NCBI GenBank assembly: GCA_018062425.1
Contig: JAGOSH010000001.1
Coordinates: forward strand, 16,039-80,038
Direction of reading: 5' to 3'
DNA from: Minisyncoccota bacterium
GTDB taxonomy: Bacteria > Patescibacteriota > Minisyncoccia > Phycocordibacterales > UBA9973
DNA: 64,000 bases
Shown in pieces: positions 10,579 to 60,223 of this stretch (its first letter is position 1; each line of letters begins with the position of its first letter). The position numbers and the translations under genes are program-made. The notes under the pieces are model-generated. The model searched no databases, was not told the origin of the DNA, and saw only the letters and a program-made list of their open reading frames with translations.

Positions 10579-13500
10579 ATGAAAATTTTTAAAAAAGTAA
10601 AAATAGTTGTTTCCCTAATAATTGCCTTATCTGTTGTGCCGTCTGTTGCTCATGGTGCACTAGTTCTCAAAACCTTACAAGCTATCAACGTAACACAGAG
10701 CACAGCAACACTCCTTGCACGCGTTAGCGACCTGTCTTCCCCCGAGGGAACCATAGTAGACCTGTATGGTAAATTCCGGTATTCCACCAACGCAAACAAC
10801 GCAAACAAGACCTGTGAAACAATGCAAAGTGCTACCGAGGTGGCCGCTGATCCACCACCACTCACAGGACTCGATTTTTTTACTAATAGTGCTTACAACT
10901 TCCAAAAGAAAGACCTTGGTCCTCTGCAACAAAATACACAGTATTATTATTGTGCTGTGGTTTCCAGTACCGACGATTTCTCGAGCGGTGTTTTGTATGG
11001 AAACATGGTGACTTTTACACCAGAACCACCTCCAGACTTGATAGGTAGTGTTATAACAGTAGGCTCGAGTAACGTGGGGGAAAGTACTGCAACTGTTTCT
11101 GGACAAATCATAGAAGACAATCCTAACACTCCGGTGTTTGGTCGCTTTCGTTACTCAGAAAATTTCGGTCCTAGTTGTGGATCATTGCCCAACGCGCAAA
11201 CGAGCCTCAAGAGGAAAAAAACAGGGACCGGTAATTTTACCTTTAATGTTACCTTAACAGGACTCAAGGATGGAACAAAGTATTACTATTGTGCTGTGGG
11301 AGCGGACAATTCTGACTTTTTTGATGCGGTTTATGGAAATGTAAAAGATTTTACCACTCCGTTTAGTAGTAGCACTAACAGAATCGGCCCGGTTAAAACA
11401 CTGACTGCTACACAAATAGATGACACTGAGGTTACCCTTCGTGGCAATTACACTGCTGGTGGACCAGGATTTGCGTACTTTAGAGTGTCCACGGCAGACA
11501 TACCACCGGTATTCTGTAACGACATTTACGGTTCTGACATGATTGGTGTCACCTCAAACATACCAGACCCAATAGGGTATACTACTGGCGGAGATTTTGG
11601 TGTCCACGTAAACGGACTAGACCCAGAAACTGATTACTACTACTGTGCAGTAGTATCCAACGGTGCGTACGATCCAACAAAACCTAGATCTTTAAATGAA
11701 GCTCAGATTAAATACGGAGAAGTGAAAAAATTTAGAACTCTGCCTTGTGACAGCTGCAACAATACAACCATTACTACAAAAGGATCGGATGTAATAGATA
11801 GTACTAGCGCTAATCTGACAGGGACTTTCAAGTCTTCGCGTGCAGTGAATGTTTTTTTTGAGTATTCAAAGTTTGGAATTATTGATCCAACAAACCCACA
11901 ACCACCAACAGCGCTCTGGCAAGCAACTCCAGAGAAAAAATACGGTGCCAATTCTAGCGCTAACTACAACCAGCTGATAAAAGATTTAGAGAAGAACACA
12001 ACATACAGCTTTAGAGCTGTCGCTAAGGTGACCAACCCTGATACTTCAATAGAAATATTCTACGGTCAAACACTACAATTCACCACCAACAAATACAACG
12101 GGGTTACTGGTGAAGACATTGATGATGGAAACGGAATTGATGACCCTCCTATTATAGACCCTGGAGTGGGTGTAGGTCCTGGAGTAATAATAACCACAGG
12201 AGACGACAACTGCCCAGCGGGAACAACTGGTACGTTCCCTGCATGTACGCCGATCATAAACCCATTAGGTTGTTCAATTGGGTGGCTTGGAACCCCTCCA
12301 AACTGTTTCAACCCTGGACCTGGAGGAACCGGTACTGACCCAACAACCAAAACTCCCAAAGTTACCGTAACAGCTAACCCTGTATTTATTGACATTGGTG
12401 AGTCTTCGACTATCTCGTGGACATCATCCGCTGTTTCTACTTGTACTTTAAATGGTTACGAAGTTCCAACAAGTGGCTCTGCTGACACAGGAGGGTTGAA
12501 CAATACCACTTCTTATACAGTTGCATGTTCTGGAATCAATGGATCAGCTGCGGATACTGCAAGTGTTTTTGTAAATATCGACAATGGTAACGGTGGAGGA
12601 GATTTGATTTGGGTTGATGTAACAGCTTCACCTGTTTTCTTTCCACTAAATGCTTCAGTTACCATATCTTGGACATCAGGAGGAGCACAGTTTTGTGATA
12701 GTGGAGGACATGGAGAGGGAACCAGTGGATCGTTTGTTATACCATTAGTCAAAGCTAGTTCTTCTCACACAGTAACTTGCAGTGGTCAGGCTGGCACCGC
12801 CAGCGATACTGCATACATTGTATTGTACGACACCGGCATACCACCTCTACCTACAAACATGTGTGTTCCTACCACAGAAACCAGAAACTTGAACTGCTCT
12901 GCTGGTTATACTGGTTCTGTAAGTCAAACGAGAACATCTTCTTGTCCTACCTTATACGGAAATCCTGTTTGGGCCCCTTGGACAACAACCACTAACACCT
13001 GTACAGACCCGAATGGCAACACAGCCCCACCACCTCCACCACCTCCTCCTGGAGCGTGTTTCTCAAGCAACCAAACTAGACTATTGGCCTGTCCAGCTGG
13101 TTACACTGGTTCAATAAACCAAGCACGTACCTCTTCTTGTCCTACTGCAAACGGAAATCCTGTTTGGACTGACTGGGTAACCACTTCTGAAAATTGTAAA
13201 GACGCGAATGGTAATGGTTTACCTCCAACACCACCAGGCGGCACGCCACCTGGTCCAGGGAATCCTGGAGTTCCACCTAATCCAGCAAACCCTGGAGTTC
13301 CACCTCCACCAGGCGGACCAGGTCAGAACGGCAACCCACCACTAACACAAGACAATGACAATGATGATGATGGTGTAGGTAATCCGCACGACGATGACAC
13401 TGATGGTGATTGGGATCCAAACGATACTGACACCGATGACGATGGAGACGGTATTCCTGACTTTGTTGATGGTTCACCAAATGGTCCAGGCACCGGAGAC

Positions 13501-14076
13501 GACTTTGATGGGGGAGGGCTTCCAAACTCTTTGGATACAGACATGGATGGCGACGGAATTCCAAACTACTTAGACGGTGACACTGATGGAGACGGAGTAC
13601 CTAACGATATTGACCTAGACGATGATGGAGATGGAATTCCTGACTTGCTCGACCCAACGCCTCGAGGCACACATGGTGACCGAGGAAGTGATTTGTTGGT
13701 TCTGGGTCAAGAAGCTACCCCACCAAACGACGCAATAGTACGCTATCATGAAGGTATTGAGACTGTTTTCGCAAGGCAGATTCGCCGAAACACAGCTTTC
13801 GCCGAGAGGTATGGATATACTGGGGGAGACATGGTCAACTTTGCTTGGAACCTGGCGCACACATTTGCTAAATTCTATTTCGGATACATCAACGAATCAA
13901 ACCTGGAAGTTCGAGTTTCCGCACCAGATGTTTCTGCGTACGAATTACGACAAGTGTCCAACACACTGGTTGTGTATGAGTATTACAAAAATGTGATAGT
14001 TGATATCAGGAGTAAGACAGTGGAGTTTAAAAACAAGAATCCGTACGAATATTATTTCCGCAGAATTTTCCGATAA
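10579..14076 (+). CDS. giant surface/adhesin-like protein with YYYCA-motif repeats, Cys-rich tandem modules, polyproline and thrombospondin-type-3-like Ca-binding repeats
   Basis: Signal peptide. The motifs TQYYYCAVV, TKYYYCAVG and TDYYYCAVV. Two tandem ~55-aa Cys-rich modules (C..TR.L.C.AGYTGS..Q.RTSSCPT..GNPVW..W). PPPPPPPPG. Repeated DxDxDGxxD units (DTDGDGIPDFVDG, DTDMDGDGIPNYLDGDTDGDGVPNDIDLDDDGDGIPDLLD). Confidence 0.65.
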   Translation: MKIFKKVKIVVSLIIALSVVPSVAHGALVLKTLQAINVTQSTATLLARVSDLSSPEGTIVDLYGKFRYSTNANNANKTCETMQSATEVAADPPPLTGLDFFTNSAYNFQKKDLGPLQQNTQYYYCAVVSSTDDFSSGVLYGNMVTFTPEPPPDLIGSVITVGSSNVGESTATVSGQIIEDNPNTPVFGRFRYSENFGPSCGSLPNAQTSLKRKKTGTGNFTFNVTLTGLKDGTKYYYCAVGADNSDFFDAVYGNVKDFTTPFSSSTNRIGPVKTLTATQIDDTEVTLRGNYTAGGPGFAYFRVSTADIPPVFCNDIYGSDMIGVTSNIPDPIGYTTGGDFGVHVNGLDPETDYYYCAVVSNGAYDPTKPRSLNEAQIKYGEVKKFRTLPCDSCNNTTITTKGSDVIDSTSANLTGTFKSSRAVNVFFEYSKFGIIDPTNPQPPTALWQATPEKKYGANSSANYNQLIKDLEKNTTYSFRAVAKVTNPDTSIEIFYGQTLQFTTNKYNGVTGEDIDDGNGIDDPPIIDPGVGVGPGVIITTGDDNCPAGTTGTFPACTPIINPLGCSIGWLGTPPNCFNPGPGGTGTDPTTKTPKVTVTANPVFIDIGESSTISWTSSAVSTCTLNGYEVPTSGSADTGGLNNTTSYTVACSGINGSAADTASVFVNIDNGNGGGDLIWVDVTASPVFFPLNASVTISWTSGGAQFCDSGGHGEGTSGSFVIPLVKASSSHTVTCSGQAGTASDTAYIVLYDTGIPPLPTNMCVPTTETRNLNCSAGYTGSVSQTRTSSCPTLYGNPVWAPWTTTTNTCTDPNGNTAPPPPPPPPGACFSSNQTRLLACPAGYTGSINQARTSSCPTANGNPVWTDWVTTSENCKDANGNGLPPTPPGGTPPGPGNPGVPPNPANPGVPPPPGGPGQNGNPPLTQDNDNDDDGVGNPHDDDTDGDWDPNDTDTDDDGDGIPDFVDGSPNGPGTGDDFDGGGLPNSLDTDMDGDGIPNYLDGDTDGDGVPNDIDLDDDGDGIPDLLDPTPRGTHGDRGSDLLVLGQEATPPNDAIVRYHEGIETVFARQIRRNTAFAERYGYTGGDMVNFAWNLAHTFAKFYFGYINESNLEVRVSAPDVSAYELRQVSNTLVVYEYYKNVIVDIRSKTVEFKNKNPYEYYFRRIFR

Positions 14077-40215: not shown

Positions 40216-40224
40216 ATTGCTTGA

Positions 40225-40250
40225 CCCCGCCCTTCGCGAAGGGTGGGGTT
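40225..40250 (+). terminator. hairpin after polA
   Basis: CCCCGCCCTTCG / CGAAGGGTGGGG with one G-U pair in the stem; the downstream T-run is weak. Confidence 0.45.
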
Positions 40251-42968: not shown

Positions 42969-45143
42969 GTGTCTCAAAATCAAGGAAGTATCTTTAAATT
43001 AGTTAGTGAATTCAAGCCCGATGGTGATCAACCGAAGGCTATTTCGCAGTTGTTGGAAGGTTTAAATAAAGGCATGAAGAAGCAAACCCTGCTCGGGGCT
43101 ACTGGTACTGGTAAGACTTTTACCATGGCGAATGTTATAAAAGAGCACAACAAACCCACGCTCGTTATAGCCCACAACAAAACCCTCGCTGCCCAGCTCG
43201 CCCAGGAGTTCAAAGAATTTTTCCCCGACGCTGCGGTGCATTATTTTGTTTCTTATTACGATTACTATCAACCCGAGGCCTACATGCCAGTGTCGGATAC
43301 TTATATAGAAAAGGATGCCAGCATAAACAAAGAAATCGATCGTTTGCGACACGCCTCCACCCAAGCACTGCTTACCAGAAAGGACGTCGTTATTGTTGCG
43401 TCAGTGTCTTGCATCTATGGTTTAGGTAGTCCCGAAGAATATGAAAAAGTAAATCTTAAACTTGAGACAGGTATGAAGCTCGAGCGAAACACCTTAATGA
43501 AAAAGTTGATTGATATTCATTTCAGTCGAACCAATGCTGACCTAACACCGGGCACATTTCGATCTATCGGACCCAAGGTTGAATTTATGCCAGTGTCGGA
43601 AAACGTTATGTATTCTGTTGAATTCGGAAACTCGAGGTCGGACCTCAAGGGGTCCCGAGGTCCGACCTCAGAAATTTCTAAAATTAACAAAATTGATCCA
43701 GTATCTATGCAGGTTTTAGCTACAGAGAATAATGTCTATATATTCCCAGCGAAGCACTTCATTACCGAGGATGTGAAGGTAAAGAAAGCGCTCGAAAATA
43801 TAAAAAAGGAATTAGCACTACAACTTAAACAATTTGAAAAAGAGGGCAAACTGCTCGAAGCCGAAAGAATCAAAAGGCGGACTAATTATGACCTAGCTAT
43901 GATTCGTGAGGTCGGGTATTGTTCAGGGATTGAAAACTATTCTAGGCATCTGTCTGGTAAGAAGGAAGGCGAACCACCAGAGACTTTGTTGTCATATTTT
44001 AAAAAAGATTTTCTCACTATTATCGATGAGTCACATGTGACACTTCCTCAGCTCCAAGGTATGTATGCTGGGGATGCTTCTCGTAAAAAAACTTTGGTGG
44101 AATATGGATTTCGACTACCTAGTGCAAAGGACAACCGCCCACTCCAATATCCAGAGTTTGAAGAACGTATTGGTCAGGTTATCTACACCAGTGCTACCCC
44201 GAGCGAGCAGGAACGAACCCAAAGTGCGCAAATAGTGGAACAAATCATTCGCCCAACAGGGTTGGTTGATCCGGAAACAATTGTGCGACCAGTAGCAGAG
44301 AAGGGTGCGTATAAAGGCCAGATACAAGACTTCATTAAAGAAACCGAAGCAACTATCAAGCGAGGTTTCAGGGTTCTTGCTACAACCCTAACCAAAAAAA
44401 TGGCGGAGGATTTGTCGGTGTATTTGAAAGACAAGAAAATAAAAGCCGAGTATTTGCACAGCGACATCAAGACTTTAGACAGAATACGAATTCTCACTGA
44501 GTTTCGAAAAGGGAAGCACGACGTGTTGGTTGGAGTTAACCTCCTGCGTGAAGGCTTAGATTTACCAGAGGTAGCGTTGATTGGAATATTGGATGCTGAT
44601 AAAGAAGGTTTCTTGCGTTCTGAAACATCGCTCATTCAAACCATCGGCCGTGCTGCGCGTAACTCCGAAGGACGAGTGATACTTTACGCTGACCAGATGA
44701 CGAAGTCGATGGAAAGCGCCTTGGGGGAGACCAAGCGCCGCCGAGACACCCAACTATCCTACAACAAAAAACACGGTATAACGCCGAAGACGATTCTCAA
44801 AAACATCAAAGACATTACTGAGGCTATGGAAAGCGAACACGGCAAGGCGGTGAATGCGGAACTCAACATTGATCTGGAAGTATTCAAGAAAGCTTATGCC
44901 AAAGAATTGAAATTAGACCGGAGCAAGATTACCCAAAAGAAAACCAAAGAAGGCAACGTTACCGAGGTCAAACTCCACATGTCCGATGGTGAGAGGAGTA
45001 ACCTGGTTTATGAAAAAATAATCAAAATAAAAGAGAAAGAAATGAGTAAAGCTGTGAAAGAGCTCGATTTTGAAACCGCGGCCATCCTGCGGGATGAGAT
45101 GGGGGTATTGAGGGAAAGGATTGACAAAAGCGTAGAAGCGTGA
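42969..45143 (+). CDS. uvrB: excinuclease ABC subunit B
   Basis: The MSQNQGSIFKLVSEFKPDGDQPKAI N-terminus, Walker A GATGTGKT, the helicase motifs and the C-terminal UVR domain. It contains a 12-aa palindromic-element insertion (43634-43669). Confidence 0.9.
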   Translation: MSQNQGSIFKLVSEFKPDGDQPKAISQLLEGLNKGMKKQTLLGATGTGKTFTMANVIKEHNKPTLVIAHNKTLAAQLAQEFKEFFPDAAVHYFVSYYDYYQPEAYMPVSDTYIEKDASINKEIDRLRHASTQALLTRKDVVIVASVSCIYGLGSPEEYEKVNLKLETGMKLERNTLMKKLIDIHFSRTNADLTPGTFRSIGPKVEFMPVSENVMYSVEFGNSRSDLKGSRGPTSEISKINKIDPVSMQVLATENNVYIFPAKHFITEDVKVKKALENIKKELALQLKQFEKEGKLLEAERIKRRTNYDLAMIREVGYCSGIENYSRHLSGKKEGEPPETLLSYFKKDFLTIIDESHVTLPQLQGMYAGDASRKKTLVEYGFRLPSAKDNRPLQYPEFEERIGQVIYTSATPSEQERTQSAQIVEQIIRPTGLVDPETIVRPVAEKGAYKGQIQDFIKETEATIKRGFRVLATTLTKKMAEDLSVYLKDKKIKAEYLHSDIKTLDRIRILTEFRKGKHDVLVGVNLLREGLDLPEVALIGILDADKEGFLRSETSLIQTIGRAARNSEGRVILYADQMTKSMESALGETKRRRDTQLSYNKKHGITPKTILKNIKDITEAMESEHGKAVNAELNIDLEVFKKAYAKELKLDRSKITQKKTKEGNVTEVKLHMSDGERSNLVYEKIIKIKEKEMSKAVKELDFETAAILRDEMGVLRERIDKSVEA
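43634..43669. repeat. 36-bp composite palindromic element, in-frame within uvrB
   Basis: GAGGTCGGACCTC-AAGGGGTCCC-GAGGTCCGACCTC. The two arms are reverse complements of each other and each arm is itself a GAGGTC/GACCTC hairpin. It encodes RSDLKGSRGPTS. Confidence 0.8.
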
Positions 45144-45182
45144 TAGTTTGCAGGGCAGTAAGTTATTTAAAAAACATCGTAA

Positions 45183-45566
45183 ATGGCACCGCGTCATGGG
45201 CCAAAAACTTCCACCTTCAACTTCCTATATACAATGAAATTGTCTGTTCTAATCTTGCTTATCATCTCCCTTGGTCTTTTTCTCAGTAAAAATAACGATC
45301 AAGACGAACTACAAAAAGTGCAAACAGAACTGGATAGCATGCCAGCAAAAATTGCCAAGATTGATTCTATGTTGAATGAAAAAATTACGGAATTGGAGAT
45401 CCAAAAGGGGATCAACGCAGAACAAGACTTGGTAATCAATCAACAACTGATGCAACTTGAAGCCCAGAAGGCGACAATCGGGTCAGTTAAAAAACTGAAC
45501 AAAGAGAAGAGATATAGGGAGGCTGCGCAGGTTTTAGATAAATACCTGAGGGAGTATCCCCAATAG
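45183..45566 (+). CDS. hypothetical membrane-anchored coiled-coil protein
   Basis: N-terminal TM helix followed by a coiled-coil. Confidence 0.5.
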   Translation: MAPRHGPKTSTFNFLYTMKLSVLILLIISLGLFLSKNNDQDELQKVQTELDSMPAKIAKIDSMLNEKITELEIQKGINAEQDLVINQQLMQLEAQKATIGSVKKLNKEKRYREAAQVLDKYLREYPQ

Positions 45567-45582
45567 TAAATAAGGAACACAC

Positions 45583-45627
45583 AGCCCGATGGCAAGCTCG
45601 ACTTACCATCGGGCTTCGCTATTTTTG
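45583..45627 (+). terminator. intrinsic terminator
   Basis: AGCCCGATGG-13nt-CCATCGGGCT followed by TCGCTATTTTTGGG. Confidence 0.7.
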
Positions 45628-45660
45628 GGTTATTTTATAAGAGATTTTTATTGAAATTTA

Positions 45661-45669
45661 TGTTATAAT
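45661..45669 (+). promoter_or_regulatory. extended -10 promoter element for uvrA
   Basis: TGT-TATAAT ends 10 nt before the uvrA ATG at 45680, implying a leaderless or very short-leader transcript. Confidence 0.45.
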
Positions 45670-45679
45670 ACACAGTCAA

Positions 45680-48298
45680 ATGGTCAAAAAAGAAACAAGC
45701 AAAGGCGTAGACACAATTGTCGTCAAAGGTGCTCGGACGCATAATTTAAAGAATATAAACATAGAAATGCCACGCAACAAGATGGTGGTTATTACTGGTG
45801 TCTCAGGCTCTGGTAAATCATCTCTAGCTTTTGACACTATATTCGCCGAAGGGCAGAGGAGGTATGTAGAGTCTCTGTCTTCTTATGCCCGCCAATTTTT
45901 AAACCAAATGCCGAAGCCGGATGTGGATGAGATCACGGGCCTTTCTCCAGCTATATCTATCGACCAGAAGTCTCGCTCCAACAACCCGCGATCAACTGTG
46001 GCGACGATAACAGAAATATATGACTATCTCCGTGTTATGTACGCCCGCATCGGGCATCCGCATTGTCCAGAGTGTGGCGAAGAAATAAAGAAACTTTCCA
46101 ATGAAGAAATTTTGAATTTCGTTTTAGAGAAAGTAAACGCAATCAACAAAACAAAAAAGGGTACCAAAAAAGTTTTAGATGTTGAGTGGAATGAAACAGA
46201 GATAAGTATCTTCTCGCCAGTAGTACGTGGACGTAAGGGCGAATACTATCAATTGCTTTACGATATGCTGGGTAAAGGTTTCACCCAGATACAACTAGAC
46301 GGAGCAATGAAAAACTTGCGCGAACAGATAACCCTTTCGAAAAACAAAGCCCATACCATCGAAGTTTTGGTAGACCATTTTGCTCTGCACGAATTTACCG
46401 ACAACAAAGACACATCTAAAACAAGGTTGTTTGAAGCCTTAGAGCGGGCATTGATCGAGTCTGACGGATTGGTGAATATAAAAATCGGCGAGGAGGAATT
46501 TCTGATGTCTGCCAAATTCGCTTGTAAAAATGATGGTTTTTCTTTCCCTGAAGTAGAGCCAAGACTTTTTTCTTTTAACTCTCCATATGGCGCATGTTCT
46601 ACTTGTAATGGCCTCGGTACCAAGTACTTCGGCGGAGACGAAGTGTGCGAGGATTGCCACGGTGCCAGACTCCGCAAGGAAGCTTTGAATGTTTTCCTTA
46701 CTAACAACAAGAAAAAGGTTAATATTTTAGATCTAGTTAGTCTGTCCATTAGCGACGCATATGAGTTTTTTAATAATCTGAAACTAAGTGAAAAAGAAAA
46801 AGAAATATCCTTGCCAGTCGTGCGTGAGATATCTGACCGCTTGAAATTCATGCTAGATGTGGGGCTCGACTATCTACAGCTTTCCAGAAAAGCTAACACC
46901 CTCTCTGGTGGGGAAGCTCAACGTATACGGCTTGCATCCCAACTTGGGTCACGACTCGTGGGTGCCCTTTATGTTCTCGACGAGCCGACCATTGGATTGC
47001 ACCAAAGAGACAACGATAAATTAATCAAAACTCTACTCGACCTGCGCGACTTGGGTAATACTATTTTAGTGGTTGAACACGATGAGGACACTATCTATGC
47101 ATCAGACTACATCGTCGACATCGGGCCTAAGGCTGGAGTTCACGGTGGAGAAGTTGTGGTCTCTGGAGATTTAGAAGAACTCTTAACCGCTAAAAAGAAT
47201 TCTAGTAATTCTAGAACGCTTGCATACCTGCGAGGTGAAGCAAAAATCGAAATCCCAGAGAAAAGGCGTGAAGGCAAAGGCATACTTAGAGTTGTCGGGG
47301 GCAAGATTTTCAGCTTGGATAATGTAAACGCAGAAGTTCCGCTCGGTGTTATGACTTGTATCACTGGTGTGTCTGGTAGTGGCAAGAGTTCCTTTATGTA
47401 CGAAGTCCTGTATCGAAATCTACAAGCCCGCCTCGAGCGCAAATACCGAACCGCCCAGATTTTCAATTGTTCAGGATTTACTGGGACAGAATACCTCTCT
47501 AGAGTGGTGCTCATAGATCAGTCGCCGATCGGCCGGACTCCGCGTTCAAACATTGCTACCTATACCGGGACCTTTACTCATATTCGGGACTTGTTTGCGG
47601 AAACAGAAGAATCTAAATTCCGAGGCTGGAAGGCGAACAGATTTTCTTTTAATGTAAAAGGTGGCCGATGTGAAGCCTGTGAAGGTAACGGTGAAATAGC
47701 CGTAGAGATGCACTTCCTGCCTACTGTGTATGTGACCTGTGATGTCTGTGGTGGTAAACGTTTCGACAAAGAAACCCTGACCGTAAAATACAAAAAGAAA
47801 AATATTTATGAAGTTTTACGGATGACCGTCGAAGAAGGTTTGGAATTTTTCAAGGACATACCTGCGATTTCTGACAGGTTGGCTACTCTCATAGACGTGG
47901 GACTTGGTTACCTAGAACTCGGACAATCAGCAACGACTCTTTCCGGTGGGGAAGCTCAACGCGTAAAAATATCTAGTGAGCTTTTCGAATATCGTATGTC
48001 GCACCTACGCGCCGAGAAAACTATCTATTTGCTCGATGAGCCAACCGTAGGGTTGCATTATGATGACGTAGCTAAGTTGCTTGAAGTTCTTCAGAAGCTA
48101 GTCTCAAAAGGTAATACCGTGGTCCTGATTGAACACAATTTAGATGTAGTAAAAAGTTCTGACTACTTGATAGATTTCGGACCTGAGGGTGGAACCCATG
48201 GTGGCAAGGTGGTAGCCAAAGGCACCCCAGAGGAAGTAGCGAATAACAAAAATTCACACACTGGTAAATACTTGGCAAAAGTTTTACGTAAAAAATAA
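45680..48298 (+). CDS. uvrA: excinuclease ABC subunit A
   Basis: Two ABC ATPase modules (GVSGSGKSS and [17 protein letters not shown] x2) plus the zinc fingers CPECG and CEAC...CDVCGG. Confidence 0.9.
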
Positions 48299-48329
48299 AT
48301 GAAGCGAAGACTTTCTGTCTTCGCTTCAT
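48299..48329. terminator. bidirectional terminator hairpin between convergent uvrA and coaE
   Basis: ATGAAGCGAAGAC-tttct-GTCTTCGCTTCAT, a perfect 13-bp stem. Confidence 0.65.
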
Positions 48330-48925
48330 ACTCCTTCATATTTTGTTAGTTCTTGATATAAACCAAGGACTCTTTTTTCTAATTCTTCTATTTCGTACTC
48401 GGTATCGATGACGAACCTAGTGGCCGGATGTGATTCCGGGCTTTGATACTGTAGCTTTATGCGAGCTATTGCGTCTTCGGCTTGCATGTTTCGGCGAGCT
48501 GGGTCGATCAGTCTTGCAAACTGCTCTTTGGGTGAGCAAATTGCTACGATGACTCCGTAGTCAAAGCGCCACTGATCACTTTTCTGGTAAATGAGTGCGT
48601 TTTCGACGACACATAATTTTCCAGCACTTTCCGCAACGAGTTCTTCCACCTTGGCCCAAACGAGCGGGTGAATGAACTGTTCGTAGGCTAGCAATATTGT
48701 TTTATTAGAAAAAACAATATTACGGATCGTTTTGAAATCAATGCATCCTTCAGGGAAAACATTTTCCCCCAGGATAAGATTGATTTCGTTCTGGTATAGA
48801 CCAGAGGCGGCTATTTCTTTTGCGACATTGTCACAAGATATAATGACCGCTCCCAGTTTCTCGAGAAATTTTGCAACAGTACTCTTCCCAGAGCCTATGT
48901 TGCCGGTGATGGCGAAAGCTCTCAT
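48326..48925 (-). CDS. coaE: dephospho-CoA kinase
   Basis: MRAFAITGNIGSGKSTVAKFL P-loop. The start is trimmed to that ATG ('cat' at 48923-48925). Confidence 0.75.
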   Translation of the reverse strand: MRAFAITGNIGSGKSTVAKFLEKLGAVIISCDNVAKEIAASGLYQNEINLILGENVFPEGCIDFKTIRNIVFSNKTILLAYEQFIHPLVWAKVEELVAESAGKLCVVENALIYQKSDQWRFDYGVIVAICSPKEQFARLIDPARRNMQAEDAIARIKLQYQSPESHPATRFVIDTEYEIEELEKRVLGLYQELTKYEGV

Positions 48926-48976
48926 TTCGAGTACAGTTTTTATGAAGAATTGTTTTAAATCCAACCGGATGATACG

Positions 48977-50350
48977 ATGGAAACTATGACAAGTCAAGGA
49001 TTCAAAAAACTGAAACTACCCGAAAAACCCGGGGTTTATTTTTTTCTTGGCGGAAAGAGGTCGGACCTCGGGGATTCTAGAGGTCCGACCTCAAAGAGCC
49101 AGATTCTGTATATCGGCAAAGCCACCAGCTTGCGTGACCGAGTGCGTAGTTACTTTTCTAAAGACCTTATAGATACCCGCGGGCCACTCTTGGTGGATAT
49201 GGTCTTCAAAGCTGGGGATATAAAATGGCAGGAAACAGACAGTGTCCTTGAAGCGCTTATCCTAGAAGCGTCGCTAATAAAAAAACATCAACCGTATTAC
49301 AACACCAAAGAAAAAGATGACAAAAGTTTTAACTACGTTTGTATTACCAAGGAAGAATTACCTCGCGTTTTAATCATCCGGGGTAGAAATTTAATAAAAG
49401 AAAATTACAACAAAATATACGGACCATATCCGAATGGGGGACAGCTCCGAATTGCGCTCGAACTTATTCGTCGAATATTTCCATTTCTGGACGAAAAGTC
49501 CAAGGTTAAAGGAACATACGAATTTTATCGACAAATAAAACTTGCTCCAGAACAGAAAGAAATACTACTTAAAAACATCAAGAATATAAAACTCTTTTTT
49601 GAAGGTAAGAAGAAATCAATATTGAAAAGTTTAGAGAAAGAAATGAAAGTGTATGCGAAGAATAAAGAATTTGAAAAGGCTGGGGAAATAAAAAGGCAGA
49701 TCTTTTCGCTAAACCACATAAATGATGTTGCGTTAATCAAACAGGAAAAAACGAGTTATTCTAGCGCCAACGCCCTCGGAGACATAGGACAGGGGACCCG
49801 CGGCGCTTCGAATAATTCGTTTTTTCCAAAAACTGTCCGCATAGAAGCTTATGATGTAGCGCACATGTCAGGGCAGAATATGGTTGGGGTAATGACCGTG
49901 ATTGACCTGCCTGCCGGTGGGCAGGAGATGGGTGAGGTAAACAAAAGTGAATATAAAAAATTTAAAATTCGGACCCAAGATAATGCCAACGACACAGGCG
50001 CACTCGCAGAAGTTTTGGAACGCAGGTTTGGGCATCCTGAGTGGCGGAGTCCTGATTTGATAGTAGTAGACGGTGGCAGAGCCCAAATAAACTCGGCTGA
50101 GAAGGTTTTGAAGAGACTTAATTTGAGTATACCTGTGGTTTCAGTTCTAAAAGACGAGAGACACAGACCCAAAAACATTCTCTCGTCCCCGAGGTCGGAC
50201 CTCAAGGGGTCCCGAGGTCCGACCTCAAAAGAACTTGCACGCAAATACGAAAGAGAAATCCTACTTGTGAATTCCGAAGCACACAGATTCGCAATCAATT
50301 ATCATAAGCAAATGAGAAACAAAAACTTTTTACCCAAGAGAAATAAGTAA
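48977..50350 (+). CDS. uvrC: excinuclease ABC subunit C (short form)
   Basis: The GIY-YIG module PGVYFF...ILYIGKATSLRDRVRSYF, a UvrC central region and a C-terminal endonuclease domain. It carries two palindromic-element insertions. Confidence 0.85.
   Translation: METMTSQGFKKLKLPEKPGVYFFLGGKRSDLGDSRGPTSKSQILYIGKATSLRDRVRSYFSKDLIDTRGPLLVDMVFKAGDIKWQETDSVLEALILEASLIKKHQPYYNTKEKDDKSFNYVCITKEELPRVLIIRGRNLIKENYNKIYGPYPNGGQLRIALELIRRIFPFLDEKSKVKGTYEFYRQIKLAPEQKEILLKNIKNIKLFFEGKKKSILKSLEKEMKVYAKNKEFEKAGEIKRQIFSLNHINDVALIKQEKTSYSSANALGDIGQGTRGASNNSFFPKTVRIEAYDVAHMSGQNMVGVMTVIDLPAGGQEMGEVNKSEYKKFKIRTQDNANDTGALAEVLERRFGHPEWRSPDLIVVDGGRAQINSAEKVLKRLNLSIPVVSVLKDERHRPKNILSSPRSDLKGSRGPTSKELARKYEREILLVNSEAHRFAINYHKQMRNKNFLPKRNK
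49057..49092. repeat. 36-bp composite palindromic element copy, in-frame in the uvrC GIY-YIG region
   Basis: GAGGTCGGACCTC-GGGGATTCTA-GAGGTCCGACCTC. The arms are identical to the other copies but the spacer differs. It encodes RSDLGDSRGPTS. Confidence 0.8.
50180..50215. repeat. 36-bp composite palindromic element copy, in-frame in the uvrC 3' region
   Basis: GAGGTCGGACCTC-AAGGGGTCCC-GAGGTCCGACCTC, identical to the uvrB copy. It encodes RSDLKGSRGPTS. Confidence 0.8.
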
Positions 50351-56753: not shown

Positions 56754-58232
56754 ATGTCTCAAGGAAAACAAGATACCATAGTTAGATTTGATAAAGTCTC
56801 TTATGAATGGAGCGTAAACAAACCTATTTTAGAAGAGGTCTCTTTTTCTATTCGCCGAGGTTCAAAACTTACTTTGATGGGACAAAACGGCGCAGGTAAA
56901 AGTACTATCTTTGGACTCATTTCTGGAATGAGTGTTCCCGAATCTGGAATAATAAATATTATGAGTGGGGTCAGTATTGCTTCTAGTAGGCAAGTCATTC
57001 CTCGCTCCGAGCTTGAGCTCACAGTGCGAGAATTCTTCGAACAAGTATTCCCTAAGAAGGTTTACGACATTGATCCAAAGATAGATGAAATCCTGGAAGT
57101 AGTTAACCTCAAGGGCCACGAGAAAGTACATGACAGAGTCATGAAAAGTTTCTCTGGTGGTCAGCAGGCTAGGCTACTTTTAGCACAAGCACTGATCCAA
57201 GATCCGGACCTGCTTCTGCTCGACGAGCCAACGAACAACCTCGACAAGGCTGGTATCAAACACCTGACTGATTTCTTGGTGAATTACAAAAAGACAGTAT
57301 TGGTTATTTCTCACGATGCGGAATTCCTAAACGCTTTCACTGAAGGAGTGCTGTACCTGGATGTGTATACCAGAAAGATCGAGCAATATGTGGGCAACTA
57401 CCACAACGTAGTCAAAGACATCACTGCCAGAAAAGAAAGAGAGAATATGAAGAACGCGCAACTCGAAAAGCAGATCCAAGCCAAGAAAGACCAGGCCAAC
57501 GTCTTTGCCCACAAAGGAGGACGGCTTCGTTTGGTGGCGCGACGTATGCGTGAACTTGCCGAAGACCTGGAAGAAGAAATCGTGGACGTGCGCAAGGAAG
57601 ACAAAACTATCAAAAATTTCCAGATCCAAAACCAGCCAGACTTGATCGGTGAGATTTTGAATATTTCATCTTTCACCACCATGAAGTCGGGGAAAATAGT
57701 GAAGCGTGTAGCACACGTGTCCCTTAAAAAGAATATGCATTTACTCCTACAAGGACCAAACGGAATAGGCAAGAGTACTTTGTTGGAAAAGCTCGCCAGT
57801 GGAAAAGACGAGGGTTCAACTATTAGTGAAGGTATACGGGTGGGGTATTATCGCCAAGATTTTTCTACGCTTAATTTTGATCACTCGGTATATGAATCCC
57901 TCGCAAGTGCGATGTTAGAAGGTGGAGAGAAATTGGATGAAGAAAAAATGCGCGCTATTGCCGCCGGATTTCTAATCACCGGGGAAATGATTCGTACAAA
58001 AATAGGCAGTTTATCCGAAGGACAGAAGGGGCTCGTGGCTTTCGCTAGACTTGTAATGATAAAACCAGGACTCCTTATACTAGACGAGCCTACCAACCAT
58101 ATAAATTTTCGACATCTACCAATTATCGCCAAAGCGTTAGACTCCTACGCTGGTGCGATGATCCTCGTGTCCCATGTTCCTGAATTCGTAAAACAAATTA
58201 GGATTGATGAAGTGCTTGATTTAGAAAAGTAG
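56754..58232 (+). CDS. ABC-F family ATPase (two tandem ABC domains, no TM)
   Basis: LMGQNGAGKST and LQGPNGIGKST Walker A motifs, two LSGGQ-like signatures, and an inter-domain linker. Confidence 0.85.
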   Translation: MSQGKQDTIVRFDKVSYEWSVNKPILEEVSFSIRRGSKLTLMGQNGAGKSTIFGLISGMSVPESGIINIMSGVSIASSRQVIPRSELELTVREFFEQVFPKKVYDIDPKIDEILEVVNLKGHEKVHDRVMKSFSGGQQARLLLAQALIQDPDLLLLDEPTNNLDKAGIKHLTDFLVNYKKTVLVISHDAEFLNAFTEGVLYLDVYTRKIEQYVGNYHNVVKDITARKERENMKNAQLEKQIQAKKDQANVFAHKGGRLRLVARRMRELAEDLEEEIVDVRKEDKTIKNFQIQNQPDLIGEILNISSFTTMKSGKIVKRVAHVSLKKNMHLLLQGPNGIGKSTLLEKLASGKDEGSTISEGIRVGYYRQDFSTLNFDHSVYESLASAMLEGGEKLDEEKMRAIAAGFLITGEMIRTKIGSLSEGQKGLVAFARLVMIKPGLLILDEPTNHINFRHLPIIAKALDSYAGAMILVSHVPEFVKQIRIDEVLDLEK

Positions 58233-58233
58233 T
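58195..58233. repeat. 39-bp direct repeat, copy 1 (the abcF 3' end)
   Basis: AAATTAGGATTGATGAAGTGCTTGATTTAGAAAAGTAGT is identical to 60185-60223. Confidence 0.9.
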
Positions 58234-60184: not shown

Positions 60185-60186
60185 AA
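58375..60186 (+). CDS. UvrD-like SF1 helicase with an N-terminal accessory domain (HelD / helicase IV-like)
   Basis: Walker A VISGPAGSGKTTLALHRVAYL, motif II IILDEFQNY, and a C-terminal VALTRA motif. Confidence 0.7.
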   Translation: MNYKEKLLEKLKENIASVREKIFEKLESIKLLNDKNLKQIGSLKGEERDIQMATKIRLDERFEELNHLYKTPYFAKCEFIQNKTGEKKNYYFAKHQLVEESVYSWVAPIAAIRFENPGQASYKIPNGKIMEVNILHKEQYMIVDGKVIFFSVEDLDKPRDLIYQENFTSKKAGFVLPEIVAQMEKAQDQVIRASHKGPLVISGPAGSGKTTLALHRVAYLTQAPETLAFYPAHSIIVLVQDTGTKEYFSHLLPELGIHRVTITTFQEWAFSILDLEGCSYVSRYGDNEEEKDVYEYQKIKALRTETTPSFNDNYFRVLNSVYKKHINAGLFEKQKKEMKLDRFDIIMLLQSYLKKHNKFVIKRKYLTMVNGEVKQKVEKKSVVYSLIILDEFQNYLPEQVKILKSCLQEETQSMVYVGDMAQQVQLGTIKDWDEAGETIKEERKIKLDKVYRNTKNILLFIESLGYPTVIPVGIKEGVPVVEKLLENRTKEIEYIKAVSDQYKEGTVGVIAKDPAYLEDFKKEFTEHKNIHVLTMNESQGVEFDLVCLVGINENTFKVTHYADVLPEHLIERKRMQKDLLYVALTRAISELHVLGTKKLKEIL

Positions 60187-60223
60187 ATTAGGATTGATGA
60201 AGTGCTTGATTTAGAAAAGTAGT
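60185..60223. repeat. 39-bp direct repeat, copy 2 (its antisense encodes the RluB C-terminus TTFLNQALHQS)
   Basis: Identical to 58195-58233. It overlaps the helicase stop codon and the last 12 codons of rluB on the minus strand. Confidence 0.9.

Follow-up and report, generated by a model that had tools for sequence, protein, structure and literature searches.

The window analyzed here (the whole 64-kb stretch of DNA, 64,000 nucleotides) contains three exact copies of a 36-bp repeat, GAGGTCGGACCTC-N10-GAGGTCCGACCTC, one in uvrB and two in uvrC, and all three are real insertions. The repeat is probably a REPIN-like doublet, mobilized in trans by a RAYT-like enzyme and tolerated in frame in permissive loops of its host proteins. 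Unlike the REPs and REPINs that lie between genes, these miniature hairpin elements live inside the genes of an ultra-small bacterium.

All three copies are on the plus strand. A search of the window for GAGGTCGGACCTC-N(6–14)-GAGGTCCGACCTC returned these 3 matches against 0 expected from 100 dinucleotide-preserving shuffles, and no further 13-mer arm with 2 or fewer mismatches was found in the 64 kb beyond the six arms of the three doublets. Copy 1 (43634–43669, uvrB) has the spacer AAGGGGTCCC and encodes RSDLKGSRGPTS, approximately residues 223–234; copy 3 (50191–50226, uvrC, residues 406–417) has the same spacer and peptide; copy 2 (49057–49092, uvrC, residues 28–39) has the spacer GGGGATTCTA and encodes RSDLGDSRGPTS. 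The earlier note had counted three copies in one shared frame, and exact matching, ORF placement, and translation agree with it (RSDL...RGPTS in each), except that the third copy ends at 50226 rather than 50215. Folded as single-stranded DNA, each copy gives a 13-bp stem with a 10-nt loop (−15.7 to −18.3 kcal/mol; z −3.5 to −6.0).

The host of copy 1 is a UvrB of 724 residues (42969–45143, plus strand, from the ORF list and its translation) that matches solved UvrB structures with an E value of 1.7e-237 and is 100% identical to P0241 from an NCBI metagenome-assembled genome of Candidatus Pacebacteria, where it is annotated as excinuclease ABC subunit UvrB. Relative to the solved structures, copy 1 appears as 12 extra residues between VEFF and DEIERI. 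Copies 2 and 3 are found in a 457-residue UvrC (48977–50350, plus strand, identified in the same way), a short form lacking the C-terminal HhH region; its orthologues, about 394–462 residues in length throughout, contain GIY-YIG, UVR, and UvrC_RNaseH_dom as Pfam domains. Copy 2 falls between the GIY (PGVYFF) and YIG (ILYIGKA) strands, in a loop between strands 19–25 and 43–49 of the AF2 model in which residues 29–38 have pLDDT values below 50. Copy 3 is in the C-terminal RNase-H-like nuclease domain and is modeled as coil, a block of pLDDT 64–68 between blocks above 88. All three inserts sit in loops, and both structure alignment and the AF2 model confirm the tolerant positions suggested in the earlier note. 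Its description of the hosts as essential excision-repair genes is right as to conservation but too strong as to need, for uvrB and uvrC are not known to be essential. The intervening uvrA (45680–48298, plus strand, 872 residues) is free of copies; its site after EALNVFL is in the empty form, and the same site is filled by the 36-bp family in L033, L110, L119, L126, L131, L132, and L140.

None of the three copies is present in L116, a syntenic relative, where the gaps are 36 nt in uvrB, 42 nt at copy 2, and 39 nt at copy 3. For copy 1, deletion of the 36 nt restores a codon-for-codon alignment, and there is no target duplication. The expected addition of exactly 12 residues holds for this copy; measured as the net gap relative to L116, the closest empty-site relative, copies 2 and 3 add 14 and 13 residues, respectively. 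The orthologue alignment that the earlier note proposed is consistent with this picture. About 105 of 120 UvrB orthologues have no insert at the site of copy 1. The copy 2 site is empty in L116 and L117, P0001, P0004, and many other UvrC orthologues do not have the insert, and different short GC-rich inserts are found there in others. The copy 3 site is empty in L116, whereas L117, L118, and L139 have there a copy that differs by one change in the spacer (AAGGGATCCC); some UvrC orthologues hold degenerate relics that keep the frame (for example, PRLDLKGAQGPTL and PRGDMKGAQG), and many others are empty. For each insert, UvrC orthologues that carry it are interspersed with ones that do not. Clean empty sites in a syntenic relative and a majority of insert-free orthologues are what a mobile palindrome family carried in frame in coding genes should leave, as had been proposed. 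Because the relics at the copy 3 site stay in frame, the peptide is probably translated. At one UvrB site, the 36 bp are identical across genomes whose flanks have diverged, which is not simple vertical descent and needs re-insertion, homogenization, or selection.

The repeat is not confined to this genome. Paired 13-mer arms occur at 115 genome loci, nearly all in metagenome-assembled genomes of Patescibacteria from many studies and assemblers, and the N10 form occurs at 23 metagenome loci; the wider search suggested in the earlier note thus recovered further copies in related genomes, in genes other than these. Unrelated housekeeping genes serve as hosts, 82 of the 116 host ORFs are 150 residues or longer, and all three frames are in use. 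Arm centers are complementary, giving an inverted pair, in 98 of 119 doublets (82%; p = 2e-13). Perfect versions of the 26 arm bases turn up in many distantly related Patescibacteria, in genes and frames other than those seen here (read as EVGP...RSDL or GRTS...EVRP in a P-type ATPase, RecJ, and other hosts), and the arms are identical even at synonymous positions while flanking codons diverge, so the constraint at the DNA level that the earlier note suspected is upheld. The 13-mer core is common to several candidate phyla and classes of Patescibacteria, and perfect N10 doublets number only about 2–3 per genome in the genomes examined.

In relatives, the repeat is physically associated with RAYT-like genes. 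The arms directly adjoin a Y1/HUH transposase gene in four of them (L010, L142, L143, and L094), on both sides in three. L010 encodes a Y1_Tnp protein of 197 residues, in which the HUH motif reads YCLMPNHFHI and the Tyr motif YIHLNP, and its gene has the doublet P-CAGATCTG-P on both sides; the same doublet lies inside a 1270-residue ORF elsewhere in that genome (L092). P doublets also stand on both sides of the RAYT-like genes of L142 and L143, and a variant flanking the L144 gene retains the GGTCCGACC core. Tetrapeptides encoded by P are found in 22 of the 120 closest transposase homologues, nearly all at the extreme C or N terminus. The transposase passes Pfam Y1_Tnp; its sole NCBIfam match is REP_Tyr_transpos, at 40 bits and thus below the curated cutoff of 80, and several homologues carry the JGI name "REP element-mobilizing transposase RayT." Sequence-profile matches to solved RAYT and TnpA structures are marginal (E 0.07–0.23). 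The AF2 model (pLDDT 85.7) has as its best PDB match in Foldseek 4er8_A (E 2.3e-5), the E. coli REP-associated tyrosine transposase with a REP hairpin bound, followed by the TnpA proteins of IS608 and ISDra2, and the L010-type transposase is accordingly modeled with a RAYT fold. No GTAG or CGTC tag was seen by eye beside the arms at the RAYT-flanking loci (compare PMC3733652). A tblastn search of the 64-kb window gave no RAYT homologue; the cognate RAYT presumably lies elsewhere in this genome.

The inverted pairing of the arms, their position next to RAYT-like genes, and the 4er8 match together make a REPIN-like doublet the best reading of the element. We propose that each 36-bp unit comprises two 13-nt REP-like palindromes (core GGTC-S-GACC), inverted so as to fold as one single-stranded hairpin. 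The units would be non-autonomous, excised and reinserted in trans by a RAYT-like Y1/HUH single-stranded DNA transposase of a kind that is common in Patescibacteria and whose gene, in relatives, is flanked by the same palindrome; this RAYT clade is likely what moves the element. The mode would be that of IS200/IS605 and REP-RAYT systems, with recognition of a single-stranded hairpin, no target-site duplication, and precise excision, and a RAYT such as that of L010 or P0139 would be predicted to bind or cleave a single-stranded GAGGTCSGACCTC hairpin. Intergenic space is nearly absent from these genomes, so copies would persist at harmless positions within genes, as multiples of three in surface loops, where translation would yield a short hydrophilic loop (RSDLKGSRGPTS), and would vanish or decay with time.

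Other small palindromic inserts are present in uvrC. A second type, found by sequence inspection at 49755–49817 (plus strand; limits approximate, as read from this sequence), has the outer arms GTTATTCTAGCGCC and GGCGCTTCGAATAAT and encodes approximately SSANALGDIGQGTRGASNN. The peptide family (F)ALGDIGQGTHGSLN recurs in UvrC orthologues, both at this position and elsewhere. A third hairpin kind, GACCTGCCTGCCGGTGGGCAGGAG (49904–49927, plus strand, also by inspection; core CCTGCC-GGTG-GGCAGG), encodes DLPAGGQE and probably accounts for a 21-nt gap in this stretch of the L116 alignment. The peptide DLPAG(R/G)QE is present in some UvrC orthologues and absent in others. Unrelated palindromic families use the same loops of UvrB and UvrC, and in a comparison of 13 genes with L116, indels of every kind cluster in uvrB and uvrC, which hold 6 of the 8 gap openings.

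The N10 subfamily is strongly and unexpectedly over-represented in the Uvr genes: 6 of about 27 independent N10 sites lie in uvrA, uvrB, or uvrC (for a genome size of 0.5–1 Mb, p = 1e-8 to 8e-7), and one frame is used at all six (p ~0.004). Random transposition with a loop-tolerance filter alone predicts neither feature. Further N10 sites lie in recJ (two sites), uvrD/pcrA, a xerC-type recombinase gene, and comEC, and other spacer variants in ligA (twice), dnaE, uvrA, and uvrB. Together with the identical 36 bp in diverged uvrB flanks, these observations would suit an element that was once mobile and is now kept in genome-maintenance genes for a function, whether as a shared mRNA or DNA hairpin joining uvrA, uvrB, uvrC, recJ, and others into a regulatory set or as a signal for DNA uptake or recombination comparable to the neisserial DUS, for which a bias toward genome-maintenance genes is discussed (PMC2397512, PMC2346458). 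We nevertheless consider such co-option unlikely. Most orthologues have empty sites and some have decayed ones, indicating that the element is not required, and the unrelated palindromes and clustered indels in uvrB and uvrC suggest that the cause lies in the host genes, through tolerance or exposure, and not in the element. Patescibacteria possess competence machinery, and comEC genes are among the hosts, which favors an uptake signal, but 3 doublets in 64 kb are far sparser than DUS at about 1 per kb, and we know of no regulator or uptake receptor for the 36-bp repeat.

Local origin and spread without a transposase, through template switching, quasi-palindrome correction, or gene conversion, would make the RAYT association incidental. 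It could accommodate the 13-mers that are centered in longer perfect palindromes with lineage-specific extensions (L015, L009, L101, L023, and L094), the tandem arrays of arms in L104, and identical copies within diverged flanks. We find it quite improbable, because it cannot bring the same 26 bases into unrelated genes and different classes of Patescibacteria and leaves unaccounted for both the clean 36-bp presence or absence without flanking homology and the repeated doublets immediately on either side of RAYT-like genes. That the 12 residues are a functional Uvr peptide and the palindrome a by-product is hardly credible, even with one peptide frame at every Uvr site and relics that remain in frame: most orthologues, including those 77–89% identical, lack the peptide, hosts such as the P-type ATPase and RecJ use other frames, and the arms are conserved as nucleotides, all of which largely refutes it. 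AF2 also gives coil and low confidence for the insert residues. The conserved motif that the earlier note had set against its own reading is not borne out; the degenerate versions at the same UvrC site in other orthologues derive from this palindrome by decay and are the minority state. Every source is a metagenome assembly, as an adapter or chimeric-junction artifact would have it, but independent samples and archives, such as L117 (ENA) and L118/L139 (JGI), share an insertion at one and the same site, which refutes this explanation, and copies occur in assemblies of many projects and pipelines, always keep long reading frames, and exist in decayed versions.

The REPIN-like doublet that we favor shares features with several known systems. 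The DUS of Neisseriaceae and Pasteurellaceae (PMC2397512, PMC2346458, PMC2817400) are also short repeated motifs, often in inverted pairs, that occur in coding regions and are over-represented in genome-maintenance genes. Unlike DUS, the motif here is two orders of magnitude less dense, is itself a palindrome, and is tied to a transposase gene, the likeness being one of arrangement and distribution. The Rickettsia palindromic elements (RPEs), put forward in the earlier note as a close parallel, hold as a functional analogy: palindromes lie in frame in unrelated housekeeping genes of a small, gene-dense genome and add a peptide compatible with the protein fold (PMC10969869, PMC1779305). They are not the nearest system, which RAYT flanking and the 4er8 match indicate to be REP/REPIN with RAYT. 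RPEs belong to a different phylum, are about 100–150 bp long with a conserved peptide per family, and have no transposase link that we found in the literature (PMC10969869, PMC1779305), whereas the element here is 36 bp, has host-dependent frames, and is linked to a RAYT-like gene; the likeness to RPEs is one of description. With IS200/IS605 elements (IS608 and ISDra2) and their palindrome-associated derivatives, the system shares the predicted Y1/HUH fold of the transposase (Foldseek matches 2a6o, 2xo6, and 2vjv) and the proposed recognition of subterminal hairpins in single-stranded DNA. Like the 36-bp unit, IS200/IS605 elements insert without target-site duplication. Unlike them, the unit is gene-free and has one palindrome at both ends in place of a distinct left end and right end, and no conserved target tetranucleotide is readable in its flanks.

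REPINs usually number hundreds per genome, whereas few perfect copies per genome are seen here. The doublet is only 32–40 bp, its 13-mer core spans candidate phyla and classes rather than being species-specific, and the transposase is a distant relative, below the NCBIfam RAYT cutoff, with no GTAG/CGTC tag seen. Canonical REPs are extragenic by definition (PMC3116915), whereas the 36-bp copies are intragenic and in frame. The REP/REPIN and RAYT system of Pseudomonas fluorescens SBW25 and E. coli (PMC3116915, PMC3337134, PMC5581495, PMC3479197) is nonetheless the nearest known. As in REPINs, defined as inverted paired REPs (PMC3116915), a short palindromic unit occurs mostly in inverted pairs with a short spacer, and the pair makes one hairpin. 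In relatives, the unit stands immediately beside the gene of a Y1/HUH transposase whose closest structural counterpart is 4er8, the RAYT-REP complex of E. coli, and filled and empty sites differ without target duplication.

The pattern GAGGTCGGACCTC-N-GAGGTCCGACCTC, a doublet of 13-mer palindromic arms around a 10-nt spacer (N10 form), has exactly three matches in the window, where none is expected by chance. Copy 1 (43634-43669) lies in the uvrB ORF (724 aa, 42969-45143), and copies 2 and 3 (49057-49092 and 50191-50226) lie in the uvrC ORF (457 aa, 48977-50350). These three doublets hold the only six arms in the 64 kb scanned; no further 13-mer arm was found in the window with up to two mismatches allowed. 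All three copies share one reading frame, in which they encode RSDLKGSRGPTS or RSDLGDSRGPTS, and as single-stranded DNA each is predicted to form a hairpin with a 13-bp stem and a 10-nt loop (-15.7 to -18.3 kcal/mol, z -3.5 to -6). The G+C content of the window is ~41%, and an Rfam scan of its whole length returned three tRNAs only, with no match at the doublets. The window UvrB has a 100% identical counterpart on a 151-kb contig from a MAG in NCBI that bears the name Candidatus Pacebacteria, and the nearest UvrC relatives carry the names Nomurabacteria or Paceibacterota.

Judged by sequence comparison, the three copies are insertions. All three are absent from L116, a relative whose contig is syntenic with the window (uvrB-uvrA-coaE-uvrC) and whose proteins are 75-96% identical. 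The gap in uvrB against L116 is exactly 36 nt, and removal of these 36 nt from the window uvrB restores a codon-for-codon match (EFGNSEISKI versus EFDGSTISKI) with no target duplication. The earlier note described the copies correctly in general but erred in an end coordinate and in stating that each adds exactly 12 aa, which agrees with the 36-nt gap in uvrB but not with the gaps of 42 and 39 nt in uvrC. Orthologues that lack the inserts are common: ~105 of 120 UvrB orthologues are empty at the window's site, and filled and empty states are interleaved at both sites among 34 UvrC orthologues. At three related loci (L117, L118, and L139), uvrC site 1 is empty and site 2 is filled with one spacer change, and some orthologues retain decayed relics at site 2 that are still in frame (e.g. 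PRLDLKGAQGPTL). At a site that carries an insert in seven other contigs, the window UvrA has the empty form (EALNVFL| and the 11 residues that follow).

A search of relatives for further copies, which the earlier note had proposed, places the window's doublets in a dispersed family. With one genome per species and paired arms with spacers of 6-14 nt as the scope, the survey found 115 loci, nearly all in Patescibacteria MAGs from many projects. The carriers include Saccharibacteria, Paceibacterota, Nealson-, Taylor-, Chisholm-, Giovannoni-, and Liptonbacteria, along with a few MAGs labelled Omnitrophota. The 115 loci hold 254 arms, of which only 16 are isolated, and several MAGs give many loci (e.g. 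JACRLT01, CAYHPG01, and JAUSHC01). Of 119 doublets, 98 have inverted arms with complementary centre bases (P = 2e-13), and both the length and the sequence of the spacer vary among loci; the N10 form was found at 23 metagenome loci. Of the 116 host ORFs, 82 (~70%) have a length of 150 aa or more, all three frames are in use, and the hosts are unrelated housekeeping genes that encode GatA, aminoacyl-tRNA synthetases, TsaD, Mur ligases, SecA, DnaE, LigA, and others. Viral contigs yielded no doublet with a 2-14-nt spacer and thus no hint that phages carry the element. No target tetranucleotide is common to the flanks of the 36 distinct N10 copies. Because some N10 copies share an additional flank consensus, roughly GGC-TCYTY...TTYCC-GCC, the mobile unit of part of the family may be longer than 36 bp.

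One locus and one MAG from this survey have a different organization. At L104 (CAIKAN010000009, 3266-3347) arms are repeated in tandem every 22 nt (P-CAGGTTGGT-P-CAGGTTGGT-P-..., where P is the arm); these lie inside a 730-aa acyl-CoA synthetase-like ORF (Succ_CoA_lig, ATP-grasp_5), and the locus has nine arms. The MAG JACRLT01, labelled Omnitrophota, has a 39-bp doublet family with a 13-nt spacer, GACAATCGGGGCC, at L003, L006, L011, L013, L036, L063, L064, L070, L071, L097, and other loci. Conserved flanks at many of these loci (gcccttgtgctc ... ggtttaatta) suggest a bigger repeated unit with a copy number far above that of the window's lineage.

Two of the doublet "host ORFs" are Y1_Tnp proteins, scoring 33-36 bits on Pfam Y1_Tnp (cut-off 23). 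The 197-aa RAYT-like gene at L010 has P-CAGATCTG-P on both sides, within a few bases, and another part of that genome has the same doublet within a 1270-aa ORF (L092). RAYT-like genes are likewise bracketed by P-TA-P at L142 and by P-GGTACC-P at L143, whereas at L094 arms are found upstream of the gene and inside it; the gene at L144 is flanked by a variant that retains the GGTCCGACC core. Other hairpins flank the RAYT-like genes of L145, L110, and L059, indicating that these bacteria have several enzyme/hairpin pairs. We also observed RAYT-like genes that hold in-frame copies of their own flanking hairpin (L094, 6275-6350; L059, 2209-2235). The RAYT-like clade is large (>7,500 homologues, several named RayT by JGI), and for 22 of the 120 closest homologues, the protein as called reaches into tetrapeptides encoded by P, nearly always at its extreme C- or N-terminus.

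The motifs YHIYNRG, YCLMPNHFH (HUH), and YIHLNP are invariant among 34 homologues of this protein. The sole NCBIfam match is REP_Tyr_transpos, at 40 bits and thus below the curated cut-off of 80. A single-sequence search of the PDB returned noise only and a profile search was marginal; the fold comparison alone was clear. In that comparison the best Foldseek match to an AF2 model of the transposase (pLDDT 85.7) was 4er8_A, the E. coli RAYT bound to a REP hairpin (E 2.3e-5), followed by IS608 and ISDra2 TnpA. Apart from the copies inside genes, doublet and RAYT-like gene together make up the REP/REPIN-RAYT arrangement as PMC3116915 and PMC3337134 define it. A tblastn search with two RAYT-like proteins as queries found no RAYT in the 64-kb window; a cognate enzyme of this genome would lie outside it.

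Mapping onto structures places the inserts in loops. Against solved UvrB structures, the insert adds 12 residues between VEFF and (G)DEIERI, within the Pfam UvrB_inter region. For UvrC, placement comes from an AF2 model with a mean pLDDT of only 65.7. In this model, site 1 (aa 28-39) falls in the loop joining the GIY and YIG strands (pLDDT <50), and site 2 (aa 406-417) falls in a lower-confidence coil inside the well-modelled C-terminal nuclease domain. The same UvrB and UvrC loops hold unrelated short GC-rich inserts in other orthologues, which argues that these positions are generally permissive. Together with the empty sites and the recurrence in relatives, the loop placement supports the earlier interpretation of a mobile palindrome in coding genes. 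The window UvrC (48977-50350) is short, as are all 120 of its closest orthologues (~394-462 aa); bacterial UvrC usually has ~600 aa. No match to the Pfam HhH domain was found in the window UvrC or in these 120 orthologues, which suggests that the C-terminal helix-hairpin-helix region is missing from these proteins.

A hairpin doublet that is cleanly present or absent without duplication, that flanks a RAYT-like gene in relatives, and that sits in loops is open to a mechanism modelled on IS200/IS605 and RAYT enzymes (PMC3479197 and general knowledge of these systems). The enzyme would bind the hairpin on single-stranded DNA, its tyrosine would cut, and the unit would be moved without target duplication. 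Precise excision would also be possible, which would agree with a patchy distribution and with repeated use of sites. With almost no spacer DNA in the genome, the survivors would be in-frame copies in permissive loops only, and these would then be translated as a short hydrophilic loop. Translation is supported by the relics, as they keep frame.

The N10 copies are found in excess in excision-repair genes. By our own reading, the 36 distinct N10 variants occupy ~27 independent host sites, with two each in uvrA, uvrB, uvrC, and recJ and one each in uvrD/pcrA, an XerC-type recombinase, and comEC. For genomes of 0.5-1 Mb, the 6 of 27 sites in uvrABC correspond to P values of 1e-8 to 8e-7. The RSDL...RGPTS frame is used at all six Uvr sites, and the 36 bp are identical at the same UvrB site across genomes with diverged flanks. 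This concentration, single frame, and sequence identity speak for an alternative in which the hairpins would not be mere tolerated parasites, and a REPIN lineage would have been domesticated in Paceibacteria as a common tag on uvrA, uvrB, uvrC, recJ, and uvrD. Such a tag might be a DNA or mRNA hairpin that couples expression to single-stranded DNA or to RAYT activity, or a signal that promotes the uptake of genome-maintenance alleles or their replacement by recombination in naturally competent, recombination-dependent cells. DNA uptake sequences, which are marked by a high genomic density and a demonstrated bias in uptake, are enriched in genome-maintenance genes (PMC2397512, PMC2346458), and this enrichment is the only trait that the doublet shares with them; three doublets per 64 kb, compared with ~1 per kb, is far too low a density to assume an uptake role. 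Moreover, UvrB and UvrC also gather several other hairpin families, and 6 of 8 indels between the window and L116 in 13 orthologous genes fall in uvrB or uvrC. Both observations point to a property of the host genes, either tolerance or single-strand exposure. We regard domestication as improbable. The uvr excess is an unexplained pattern that could bear on target choice or on the survival of these elements.

Several other repeats and features are found nearby. The window uvrC has a ~63-nt palindromic insert of another family (49755-49817, encoding ~SSANALGDIGQGTRGASNN) and a 24-nt hairpin insert of another family (49904-49927, GACCTGCCTGCCGGTGGGCAGGAG, encoding DLPAGGQE). Members of both peptide families are found again at differing places in orthologues of UvrB and UvrC, which have further insert types (PARPHDSSGAGG-, LRHSHSVLEGQ..SGRSEDS-, and SQVLGSPGPYPSQTI-type). 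The uvrB-uvrA spacing is 537 bp in the window (45144-45679) versus 20 bp in L116. The extra stretch contains a 127-aa ORF (45183-45566) with a hydrophobic N-terminus and a coiled-coil-like remainder, for which there was no Pfam match and no homologue among the compared loci, followed by a terminator-like GC-rich hairpin (45583-45615, AGCCCGATGG...CCATCGGGCT). We considered this ORF as a transposase, but it looks rather like a small membrane or coiled-coil protein with a terminator. At 40224-40249, a GC-rich near-perfect palindrome, ACCCCGCCCTTCGCGAAGGGTGGGGT, amid AT-rich DNA may be either a terminator or part of a further REP-like family. The 39-nt sequence AAATTAGGATTGATGAAGTGCTTGATTTAGAAAAGTAGT occurs as two identical direct repeats, at 58195-58233 and 60185-60223, which lie 1990 bp apart around a 607-aa ORF. 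A 74-nt coding repeat rich in Asp and Gly (GACGATGACACTGATGGTGAT...) is present in three diverged copies at 13390-13646 and looks like a calcium-binding-type protein repeat.

An incomplete literature search found the 13-mer in no publication, and likewise found nothing linking Patescibacteria to palindromic elements or RAYT/REPIN; a phylogenomic survey of HUH endonucleases (PMC6006769) makes no mention of candidate phyla or intragenic copies. What is new here is a REPIN-like family with a matching, abundant RAYT-like clade in Patescibacteria, in frame within protein-coding genes. Textbooks treat REP and REPIN sequences as extragenic repeats found in the large genomes of proteobacteria; the present family illustrates how a hairpin transposon may last in a genome nearly free of non-coding DNA. 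It accounts for part of the odd short insertions that litter Patescibacteria proteins. Such inserts break domain models, with the Pfam GIY-YIG model missed in several insert-bearing UvrC proteins, and the motif offers annotators something concrete to mask.

Among known systems, other candidates fit the doublet less well. A CRISPR or TIGR-like array is rejected because each window copy stands alone, 1-5 kb from the next, and is in frame within a conserved gene. An intein or intron remnant is rejected on the 12-codon length, the polymorphism, the several frames used elsewhere, and the in-frame relics. The inverted arms are compatible with a MITE derived from a DDE transposon, yet the clean 36-bp uvrB difference has no target-site duplication; the hexamer AAAGAG is present on both sides of uvrC site 1 but not so at the other sites. 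Rickettsia palindromic elements (PMC10969869) are alike in outcome only, through in-frame insertion. They are ~100-150 bp long with a family-specific peptide and are found in Rickettsia, whereas the present element is 36 bp, uses three frames across its hosts, and is found in Patescibacteria; this size, frame variety, and taxon rule out membership.

The likeness to REP/REPIN-RAYT systems is structural. A short palindromic unit is repeated within and between genomes, mainly as inverted doublets (98/119) with a 13-bp predicted stem. In relatives it flanks a RAYT-like gene, on both sides at L010, L142, and L143 and on one side plus internally at L094, and the enzyme is a Y1/HUH protein of RAYT fold, albeit below the NCBIfam cut-off. 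There are also differences. The unit is not extragenic, with three of three window copies and ~70% of related copies in ORFs of at least 150 aa, and the transposase is a distant relative. In most REP superfamilies, one end of the palindrome bears a GTAG or CGTC tag (PMC3733652); by eye, we saw no such tag beside the arms in the window or the arms next to the RAYT genes. In its palindrome, its inverted doublets, its flanking RAYT-type gene, and the RAYT fold of the encoded enzyme, the element is built like a REPIN and would work like one.
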